From assembly GCF_003334785.1 (NCBI RefSeq), contig NZ_QOWV01000015.1: DNA of 64,000 nucleotides; one strand, written 5' to 3'. The DNA comes from Escherichia coli (lineage in GTDB: Bacteria > Pseudomonadota > Gammaproteobacteria > Enterobacterales > Enterobacteriaceae). Of the stretch, positions 1-3,077 are shown one piece after another (position 1 is the stretch's first letter; the number at the start of each line of letters is the position of its first letter). The translations under genes and the position numbers were made by a program. The notes under the pieces are model-generated. The model did no database searches, had not been told where the DNA came from, and saw only the letters and a list, made by a program, of their open reading frames with translations.

Positions 1-241
1 AGAAAATATCCGGCGGGTTCCGGAGCGCCAGTCTGTAGGTTTATCCATCAATAGAACTCCGTCTAATTTAGAAGGAGCTCTAATTTAGTCTGCAAGGAGC
101 AGGTGTTACAGACGGCATTGGCTTTACGCTTACAGACCGGGTTATGCAGCCACGCGTAGAACCCGGCCCGGGCGACATCCAGTACCCGACACATTGTCAT
201 CACACCCCATACAGTGCGGTGCTCATTGATAAAGCGGTACT

Positions 242-526
242 TCAGTAGGGCTCCCTTGCAAAGTACCGCGCGGCCTTTTTCAGGATATCCCGTTCTTCTT
301 CGGTACGTTTTAGCTGCGCCCGTAGTTTCAGGATCTCGCTTTTGGCTTCCAGTAAATCCCGGGCATGCTGCTCGCTGTTATCCGGTTTGATAGCCCGTAG
401 CCACTTGTAGAGGCTGTGGGCAGAAACGCCCAGACGGTGAGATACTTCGGCAACGGAATAACCGCGTTCCGTTATCTGTCGGACGGCTTCTTCCTTAAAT
501 TCAGGTGTAAATCGTGGTGTGCTCAT
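242..526 (-). mobile_element. IS3-family transposase OrfA (helix-turn-helix N-terminal ORF, 94 aa); downstream orfB appears disrupted
   Basis: Translation has the typical IS3-family OrfA architecture (HTH then leucine-zipper-like C-terminus ending KKAARYFA). Reverse complement of ~130-241 encodes an OrfB-like N-terminus (KYRFINEHRTVWGVMTMCRVLDVARAGFYAW) that hits stops in all frames near position ~75-115. Confidence 0.75.
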
Positions 527-809
527 ATGCTCCCCCCTATACTCAAACTATAGGGCAGGATCGTCTACCGGGGTGGGGTCAGTCCATTACTAACTGACAG
601 TTGTACCGAATACTGGGGGCAGGTCAAGCGCTTTAGCTTGTGTGGCAACAACCTCCTTTACAGGACCAGGTAGACGATTACCCTCTGCTGTTTCTGTGCT
701 CAACGCAATCTACGGCTATCCATTTTCTGCCAGTGGTTGCAAAGACGACCATTCAACGTCAGCAAAGTTTCGCAATGCACTGCTATGTAACTCATTGATC
801 CTACGTAGA

Positions 810-865
810 ATTTAAAATCCCTCGGCGTTCGCGCTGTGCGGGTTCAAGTCCCGCTCCGGGTACCA
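810..865 (+). other. 3' fragment (anticodon loop to CCA end, ~56 nt) of tRNA-Leu(UAA), leuZ-type; probable attachment-site remnant
   Basis: Sequence atttaaaatccctcggcgttcgcgctgtgcgggttcaagtcccgctccgggtacca matches the 3' part of E. coli leuZ as I recall it; the preceding bases do not form the tRNA 5' half. Confidence 0.75.
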
Positions 866-908
866 TGGGAAAGATAAGAATAAAATCAAAGCAATAAGCA
901 GTGTCGTG

Positions 909-933
909 AAACCACCTTCGGGTGGTTTTTTTG
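909..933 (+). terminator. Rho-independent terminator (original tRNA operon terminator)
   Basis: GC hairpin accacc-ttcg-ggtggt followed by a T7 run. Confidence 0.7.
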
Positions 934-1060
934 TGCCTGCAACTTGTCGTTACACTCTCCTTAATTTTTAATCACCAGCAAAGCCACTCAAAAAGTATCT
1001 CTGATACGGACCGGCATGTAAGATAGGTGCTGGCGAGTTGAGATCCACAAGGAAAAGCGT

Positions 1061-1726
1061 ATGAAAACGGGACCGTTAAACGAAAGTGAGTTGGAATGGC
1101 TGGACGATATTCTGACCAAATACAACACTGACCACGCCATCCTTGATGTGGCGGAGCTGGACGGTTTATTGACGGCGGTGTTGAGTTCTCCGCAAGAGAT
1201 TGAACCGGAACAGTGGCTGGTTGCCGTGTGGGGTGGGGCTGACTATGTGCCGCGCTGGGCGTCAGAGAAAGAGATGACGCGCTTTATGAATCTGGCTTTT
1301 CAACATATGGCCGATACCGCAGAGCGTCTGAACGAATTCCCGGAGCAGTTTGAGCCGTTATTCGGCTTGCGAGAAGTTGATGGCAGCGAGCTGACGATTG
1401 TTGAGGAGTGGTGCTTTGGCTATATGCGGGGCGTGGCACTTTCTGACTGGTCAACGTTGCCCGATTCGTTAAAACCAGCGCTGGAGGCGATTGCGCTGCA
1501 CGGTACTGAGGAAAACTTCGAGCGGGTAGAGAAAATGTCGCCAGAAGCGTTTGAAGAGAGCGTAGATGCCATTCGACTGGCGGCGCTTGATCTACATGCG
1601 TACTGGATGGCGCATCCGCAGGAAAAAGCTGTTCAGCAACCGATCAAAGCAGAAGAGAAACCGGGGCGTAACGATCCTTGCCCGTGCGGTAGTGGTAAGA
1701 AATTTAAGCAGTGCTGCCTGCATTAA
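1061..1726 (+). CDS. yecA: YecA, UPF0149/SEC-C motif metal-binding protein
   Basis: 221-aa ORF ending in the SEC-C Zn-finger motif [13 protein letters not shown]; position next to leuZ and tyrP as in K-12. Confidence 0.93.
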
Positions 1727-1787
1727 GAGGTCAAATTGGGTGTCAGCGTTAATTCTGGCACCCAATAAGGAATTTGAGGCTATCTGA

Positions 1788-2999
1788 TCACCCCACTTCT
1801 GGTAACAACCCTGCCGCAATCAAAAATTGCACGCCAATCACAGCAATACCACAGAGAAACACCACCACCAGCGCCGGACGACCACCTTTCACCCGGTAAC
1901 CCGCCTGAGGATTGTGCTTTCTGCTTTGCCAGGTCAACAGCGAAGGGATAATCAATGCCAGTACCGCCAGCGCCACACCGGCGTAACCCAGCGCCATCAC
2001 AAATCCTCGTGGATAAAACAGTGCAAACGCCAACGGCGGCAGAAAGGTAATTGCACCAGTTTGCAACCGTCCACCAACGGTATTTGAACGCTGAAATAAA
2101 TCAGCCAGATAATCAAATAAGCCTAACGCAACGCCGAGAAATGACGTGGCGAGGGCTAAATCAGCAAATAAATGCACTGCCAGCTCAACATGCGGAGAGG
2201 CCACCATTTCGCGTAATGCCTGTAACAGCCCGTTTAATCCGGCATGATTAGCCAGCAATCCCATAAAGGTTGTTGAATCAATGCTGCCAAGCGTTGCCAC
2301 CTGCCAGAAAATATATGCCACCAGGGGGATCGCACTACCGGTTATAAACACCCAGCGTAGCTTACGAACGTTGCCATCCATATAGCTGACAATACTCGGC
2401 ACGCTACCGTGAAAACCAAATGAGGTAAAAATCACCGGGATTGCTGACAGAGCCAGCCCCTGTTGCAACGGCAGGGTTAAAAGATTCACTTTGTGAATAT
2501 GCGGTAGCAGCAATACCAGCATCACCACCAGAAAAATAATTTTGGCGCTGAACAGAAAACGGTTAAATAAATCGACCAGCGATGTCCCGACACAAACCAC
2601 GCCACCGGCAACAAAAGTGAACAACAGCACGCCAGCGGTTGCCGACATTGAAATACCTGTCCAGTCGCTGATGCTGGAGGCCAACAATTCACCGGCACCG
2701 CTGATGTATGCCGCAGTCAGAGCATACATTAAGAACATCATACTGAAGCCCGTCAGCCATTGACCGTAGCGTCCCAGATAGCGTTTTGCCAGCGTGCCCA
2801 GACCGGTATCTGCCGGAACATGCTGGTACACCTCCAGCAGTAATAGCGCCGTGTAGCACATCAACGCCCAAAGCCCAATCAACAAGATTAACGTAACGCT
2901 AAAACCAACACCGGCCGCAGCCAGCGGCATTGCCAGCATGCCAGCGCCAATTGTGGTTCCCGCCACGATAAAAACACTTCCCAGGGTTCTGTTTTTCAC
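1788..2999 (-). CDS. tyrP: Tyrosine-specific transport protein TyrP
   Basis: 403-aa polytopic membrane ORF recognised as TyrP; conserved synteny. Confidence 0.93.
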
Positions 3000-3077
3000 G
3001 CTTTCTTCTGTCCTGACGATCTTTATGAGTGATATCTGCGGCGCAGGTTAAGGCATAACGGCTTCTTCGTCAAACCG

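Follow-up and report, generated by a model that had tools for sequence, protein, structure and literature searches.

At the left edge of a 64,000-nucleotide stretch of Escherichia coli DNA (contig NZ_QOWV01000015.1 of assembly GCF_003334785.1; called the window below, with all positions counted from its first base) stands a piece of an IS3-family insertion sequence whose second reading frame breaks off. Which element was it, what broke it, and where is the missing part? We are highly confident of the following answer as a whole: an element of the ISEc14 group, placed at the edge of a leuZ-associated island, was hit in orfB by an ISEc47-like element of the IS66 family, and the two meet at 133/134. 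Nested IS insertions are a common sight in E. coli, above all in ETEC-like lineages. This one is ordinary mobile-element debris, one known IS disrupted by a second known one, with nothing new beyond a strain-specific junction.

The IS3-family remnant occupies 134–586 on the minus strand and corresponds to positions 1–453 of a 1231-bp element, being identical (100%, zero mismatches) to that part of a reference copy reconstructed from NZ_CP019259. BLAST with the reconstructed IS matched 134–586 only, so the 64-kb window contains neither a further copy nor the missing 778 bp. The left terminal inverted repeat (IRL) was located at 551–586 of the minus strand (5'-TGGACTGACCCCACCCCGGTAGACGATCCTGCCCT), with its outer tip at 586 and TGGACTG as its beginning. 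In a local alignment against the sequence past the orfB stop in L001 (the locus of E. coli 13C1065T), the IRL from 586 to 551 pairs with the right repeat (IRR) of the reference as a 36/37-bp imperfect inverted repeat with TG start. The IRL therefore has the TG...CA form of IS3-type repeats; the IRR is absent from the window.

Inside the remnant, the list of Open Reading Frames (ORFs) gives a complete orfA at 242–526 (minus strand, ATG start, 94 aa). Exactly this OrfA sequence is recorded on 133 contigs, and its DNA-binding domain (Pfam HTH_Tnp_1, residues 4–72, E = 3.5e-16) lies entirely inside the window copy. Frame positions and the modelled fusion place an AAAAAG slippery site for the -1 programmed frameshift from OrfA to OrfB at 275–280 (minus strand), which is followed in the -1 frame by the N-terminal ~47 codons of OrfB at 134–274 (minus strand; translation GRAVLCKGALLKYRFINEHRTVWGVMTMCRVLDVARAGFYAWLHNPV). 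The window copy thus keeps the two-ORF organization of the IS3 family, with orfA and orfB in 0 and -1 phases and an A-rich slippery site. Past orfA, the -1 frame reads ...KGRAVLCKGALLKYRFINEHRTVWGVMTMCRVLDVARAGFYAWLHNPV. It has no stop between a point above 280 and 134 and continues through 23 codons of IS66 DNA as far as the stop at 65–63. The minus-strand stops in the other frames are at 82–80 and 70–68 (orfA frame) and at 132–130, 126–124, 108–106 and 87–85 (third frame).

On the transpos_IS3 profile (NCBIfam NF033516, curated cut-off 160 bits), the OrfA-OrfB fragment of the window covers positions 1–124 of 369 with 94.4 bits, a score under the cut-off because the fragment is about one third of the protein. 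With 418.5 bits over the whole profile (1–369), the full reference OrfAB passes the cut-off. In the window copy homology stops at residue 131 of the fusion, and the domains HTH_21 (137–191) and rve (218–315) are beyond the break, so the DDE catalytic part is absent from the window. Judged by its sequence, the window holds a remnant of an IS3-family member and not a functional member.

A preliminary description of this DNA, made from the letters alone, had already recognized most of this arrangement. Its assignment to the IS3 family is borne out by the profile match of the fragment and of the full-length relative, and so are the complete orfA, the OrfB-like N-terminus downstream (the quoted peptide is contained in the -1 frame) and the stops in all three minus-strand frames, which all fall between 63 and 132. 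The view that orfB is interrupted or truncated is equally right, as homology ends at 134 and an IS66 end adjoins it. For the same reason no frameshift model rescues a full-length orfB, the one outcome which had been named as speaking against such a break, and none is found in the window. Two details need correction. Stops do occur around ~75–115, where the break had been put, but the true homology break is at 133/134; and the element, which had been called degenerate, is truncated or interrupted without mutational decay, since 134–586 is 100% identical to reference positions 1–453.

Signals that might control expression of the remnant were also searched. A hairpin with a stem of 10–11 bp is predicted at 234–269 (minus strand), beginning 6 nt 3' of the slippery site and present in both the minimum free energy (MFE) and centroid folds, and it may act as a frameshift stimulator. 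The 81-nt stretch containing it is not more stable than its shuffles (z = -0.28). In an Rfam scan of 1–1100 (E <= 1), no known frameshift-stimulating RNA was found, such as the pseudoknot that PGAP annotates in other IS3 elements; the only matches, two weak and sub-threshold ones, fell in the region of the leuZ terminator. The stump may still produce OrfA. A simple scan of 1–1100 detected no sigma-70-like promoter, including upstream of orfA, which leaves OrfA expression unsupported.

The intact form of the element is known from other genomes. In E. coli 13C1065T (L001), the element continues past the window break, with a 2270-bp group II intron (GTGTG...CTAC, with ltrA) inserted in it; the 1231-bp reference is the NZ_CP019259 copy minus this intron. 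This reference is bounded by imperfect inverted repeats of ~36 bp with TG start (TGGACTGACCCCAC...), which enclose the 94-aa orfA, the AAAAAG slippery site and orfB in -1 phase. The modelled OrfAB (378 aa) contains HTH_Tnp_1 at residues 4–72, HTH_21 at 137–191 and rve at 218–315 (rve E = 1.1e-28). Across the frameshift the fusion reads ...DILKK/GRAVLCK..., and the whole 378-aa product is exactly a deposited E. coli ‘IS3 family transposase’ found on 45 contigs, which validates the frameshift model. As a side observation, the ‘representative’ of the 90%-identity cluster with the 378-aa OrfAB is an unrelated 46-aa JGI protein (P0002, MENAGRAGDLEAV...), apparently a database quirk.

Other E. coli strains, for example PSS-08-1, where PGAP annotates a ‘programmed frameshift’, have uninterrupted 1231-bp copies with 99.3–99.7% identity at this chromosomal locus, and further intact copies are carried by Klebsiella and Enterobacter plasmids. 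Near-full copies were counted in 545 genomes. Members of the IS3 family are expected to make a target-site duplication of 3–5 bp. None was found at the intact copy of this locus in L004, whose flanks are ...AGTTAGTAA and CAACACC..., and its absence suggests some later rearrangement at one end. The IS3-family copy at the leuZ edge may have taken part in the turnover of the neighboring cargo.

With regard to the name, the ISfinder criterion for near-identity to the reference is >95% at the amino-acid or >90% at the nucleotide level. The 90%-identity cluster of OrfA comprises 971 proteins, some of which (from Klebsiella oxytoca and Citrobacter freundii) were deposited as ‘ISEc14 transposase A’, and the window OrfA is 97% and 94% identical to these. 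Moreover, in an IS1-interrupted copy with 99.4% identity, PGAP names the C-terminal fragment ‘IS3-like element ISEc14 family transposase’. On the basis of OrfA identity and this label we filed the element in the ISEc14 group, as ISEc14 proper or as an isoform or sister of it. The reference copy resembles ISEc14 in its 1231 bp, TG...CA repeats of ~36 bp, orfA with HTH_Tnp_1, -1 frameshift and orfB with HTH_21 and rve/DDE, whereas the window copy comprises positions 1–453 only. ISEc14 is a recognized element in the IS inventories of E. coli and Citrobacter rodentium (PMC3032704, PMC3072379).

The DNA on the other side of the break, 1–133 (minus strand), belongs to an IS66-family, ISEc47-like element: it is the left end, with the tip at 133, and the element continues past position 1, out of the window. 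The first ~115 bp had been suspected to belong to another element, which is correct in kind and too short in extent. These 133 bp are 100% identical to the element ends in NZ_CP025917 (L002) and NZ_CP025847 (L003) and finish with ...CGCTTAC; a BLAST of the IS66 element against the whole 64-kb window matched 1–134 only. The non-coding end with the terminal repeat is at 49–133 (minus strand, 5'-GTAAGCGTAAAGCC...), and the first 16 codons of a small tnpA-like first ORF (‘transposase’) are at 48–1 (minus strand; MDKPTDWRSGTRRIFS). The IS66 family has three ORFs (tnpA, tnpB and tnpC), and these 16 codons are all that the window contains of them.

The GTAAGCG terminal repeat of the IS66 family is present at minus-strand 133–120 (GTAAGCGTAAAGCC) in the window, and the opposite end of the identical element in L003 reads GTAAGCGTCAA. 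The small first ORF comes next to the identical ends in both L002 and L003; in L003, tnpB and an ‘IS66-like element ISEc47 family transposase’ come after it. The complete element in L003 (GTAAGCG...CGCTTAC) is flanked by an 8-bp duplication, ATATCTCG, which fixes the IS66 tip at window position 133. The likeness to ISEc47 consists in the identity of 1–133 to ends of ISEc47-family elements, the GTAAGCG repeat and the 8-bp duplication seen elsewhere; the difference is that the window has only 133 bp. From the 8-bp IS66 duplications in L003 and L008, the target site is predicted to be the 8 bp at 134–141 (AGACCGGG), and by analogy AGACCGGG should recur directly behind the other end of the IS66 element, outside the window.

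The homology break is exactly at 133/134, with the right side collinear in every close relative and the left side IS66. This junction is present in none of 5426 complete E. coli genomes, it was not found among GTDB representative genomes by an exact 38-mer scan, and exact look-ups of the chimeric 46-aa and 45-aa ORF products gave zero matches. In the collections searched, the IS66/IS3 junction is strain-specific, and it could be used as a typing marker.

To the right, the sequence is that of the leuZ-yecA locus on the E. coli chromosome, with yecA at 1061–1726 and then tyrP, yecH and ftnA as annotated in reference genomes. The region 134–1000 is collinear with E. coli 13C1065T at 99.9% identity and with several ETEC-like strains at 99.7%. 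A 3' fragment of leuZ, the last 56 nt of this 87-nt tRNA-Leu gene, is located at 810–865 (plus strand), without the 5' 31 nt of the gene, and forms the displaced attachment-site repeat at the yecA-proximal end of the island; ARAGORN found no whole tRNA in window 1–3000. Island-free genomes such as C600 can be aligned only from window 810, that is, from within the annotated tRNA-Leu (L007 570–656, match start 601). The partial leuZ together with this alignment start indicates that an island integrated in the 3' end of leuZ and left the tRNA fragment on the yecA side. A direct repeat of the tRNA 3' part at the boundary, with the core gene yecA beyond, is what a leuZ island presents, and from this comparison the window begins inside a leuZ-associated genomic island. 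At the opposite end of such an island, outside the window, an integrase gene and an intact tRNA would be expected.

Between the IS3-family remnant and the tRNA fragment lies a non-coding island end segment (587–809), carried by ~330–365 of the 5426 genomes, usually once per genome, while the majority match from 810 on only. Strain N-01, which has no IS at this locus, is collinear with the window from 587 rightwards. The IS3-family copy is placed where this conserved island end meets variable cargo, and the cargo immediately left of it differs between strains. In relatives the cargo contains Hhe, DUF262 proteins, type I restriction genes and further IS elements. From these results the first ~870 bases of the window can be annotated correctly, as an IS66-family end, an ISEc14-group remnant, an island end and a leuZ fragment.

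Among the relatives, the cargo at leuZ (L004 13417–22825; L008 1–9061; L006 1–4877) consists of anti-phage and restriction genes and is strain-variable; a 5.7-kb hhe (DUF4011), paired DUF262 genes and a type I restriction R subunit with an M48 peptidase are found there. By its gene content, the leuZ island looks like a variable defence island.

Taken together, a 1231-bp ISEc14-group element lies at the yecA-proximal edge of the leuZ-integrated island, and its orfB received, behind element position 453, an IS66-family (ISEc47-like) insertion, probably with AGACCGGG as the 8-bp target. The window keeps the left third of the older element (IRL, orfA, the frameshift site and 47 orfB codons) and the first 133 bp of the IS66 element. 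A frameshift product of this stump would be ~154 aa long, with 131 native residues and 23 from IS66 DNA, and would be without HTH_21 and rve. In the IS3 family, OrfAB made by -1 frameshifting is the transposase, which acts on both inverted repeats. Because the window copy is without HTH_21 and the DDE core and has no IRR adjacent to it, it cannot move by itself, as far as the missing parts and established IS3-family biology tell.

Other strains show how such copies are broken. The closest relatives of the window are the ETEC-like strains 13C1065T and F5505-C1, which have the same IS3-family copy at the same locus and in the same island (with Hhe and DUF262 cargo), likewise broken by mobile elements, but at different positions. 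In both, a group II intron (2270 bp, with the ltrA reverse transcriptase/maturase) is inserted at 747/748 of the same IS copy (L001 3437–5706 in 13C1065T; L008 12437–14706 in F5505-C1), in the DDE region, where it splits the VTDITY/IRTW motif. In F5505-C1 (L008), the same copy was also hit by an ISCro1-family IS66 element at 1052, with an 8-bp duplication of 1045–1052, whereas in the window it was the ISEc47-like element that entered, at 453. GPEC996 carries an IS1 inside a copy at a different locus, and there the 9 bp at 532–540 are duplicated. Both halves of the IS3-family element are retained in each of these nested cases (F5505-C1 and GPEC996). The source genome of the window may also carry this group II intron further left.

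These simple nested insertions, in which both halves were retained, favor interruption over deletion, and the remaining 778 bp probably follow beyond the ~2.6-kb IS66 element. Loss of that part is possible and clearly the less probable course: a deletion or an IS66-IS66 recombination, after or with the insertion, would have removed positions 454–1231 and perhaps cargo, leaving only the 453-bp stump. The window has a single junction, which accords with such a loss, and recombination would have ample substrate, as ISEc47-like elements occupy up to 23 places per genome in carrier strains; the cargo directly left of the IS3-family copy also varies between strains. However, the nested insertions in all relatives examined are simple ones, with target duplications and both halves kept. 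It is very improbable that the junction is an assembly artefact, namely a chimeric join at a repeat boundary with the IS3-family copy intact or otherwise broken in the strain. Multi-copy IS elements are classic misassembly sites, and the junction is unique among the 5426 genomes and absent from the GTDB representatives, but the break falls precisely at the IS66 terminus (...CGCTTAC), a tip seen with an 8-bp duplication elsewhere, as true transposition would give, and the flanking 134–1000 is collinear at 99.9% with real genomes.

Two further readings concern the meaning of the interruption. With orfA intact and its HTH domain complete, the IRL-orfA module might be under selection as a stand-alone regulator, for example as a trans repressor of related IS3-family copies, given that the OrfA proteins of IS911 and IS3 modulate transposition. 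We give this hardly any credence, even less than the artefact, because the stump DNA is 100% identical to active copies, so that the interruption is recent and there has been too little time for selection to show; moreover, the window has no second copy of the element and no promoter-like site, and the junction occurs in no other genome. The other reading regards the ISEc14-like copy at the leuZ edge as a preferred landing pad for mobile elements. Independent hits across strains are on record, by the ISEc47-like element at 453, the ISCro1-family element at 1052 and the group II intron at 747, as well as by IS1 at 540 in a copy from a different locus. If it were true, IS66-family elements and group II introns would target IS3-family transposase genes or this chromosomal spot; we consider it doubtful and chance hits much the better explanation.

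Two minor observations concern the sequence around the leuZ fragment. Just past it, at 909–937, a stem-loop with a T-run (accaccttcgggtggttttttt) gave weak sub-threshold Rfam matches to STnc130 and sroD; the structure looks like the terminator of the tRNA operon and not like a small RNA. On the other side, at 594–626 of the minus strand (TGACCTGCCCCCAGTATTCGGTACAACTGTCAG), a string resembling an IS3-type terminal repeat (TG..C.TG.CCCC.A....GGTA) is found 7 bp beyond the IRL and oriented like it, comparable to the IRL of the element itself (TGGACTGACCCCACCCCGGTAGAC). It occurs about once per genome in E. coli, at the leuZ locus, and so it is not the end of an active multi-copy IS. IS911 inserts beside IR-like sequences; the string at 594–626 may be an old solo inverted repeat, or the IS may have been drawn to it as an IR-like target.
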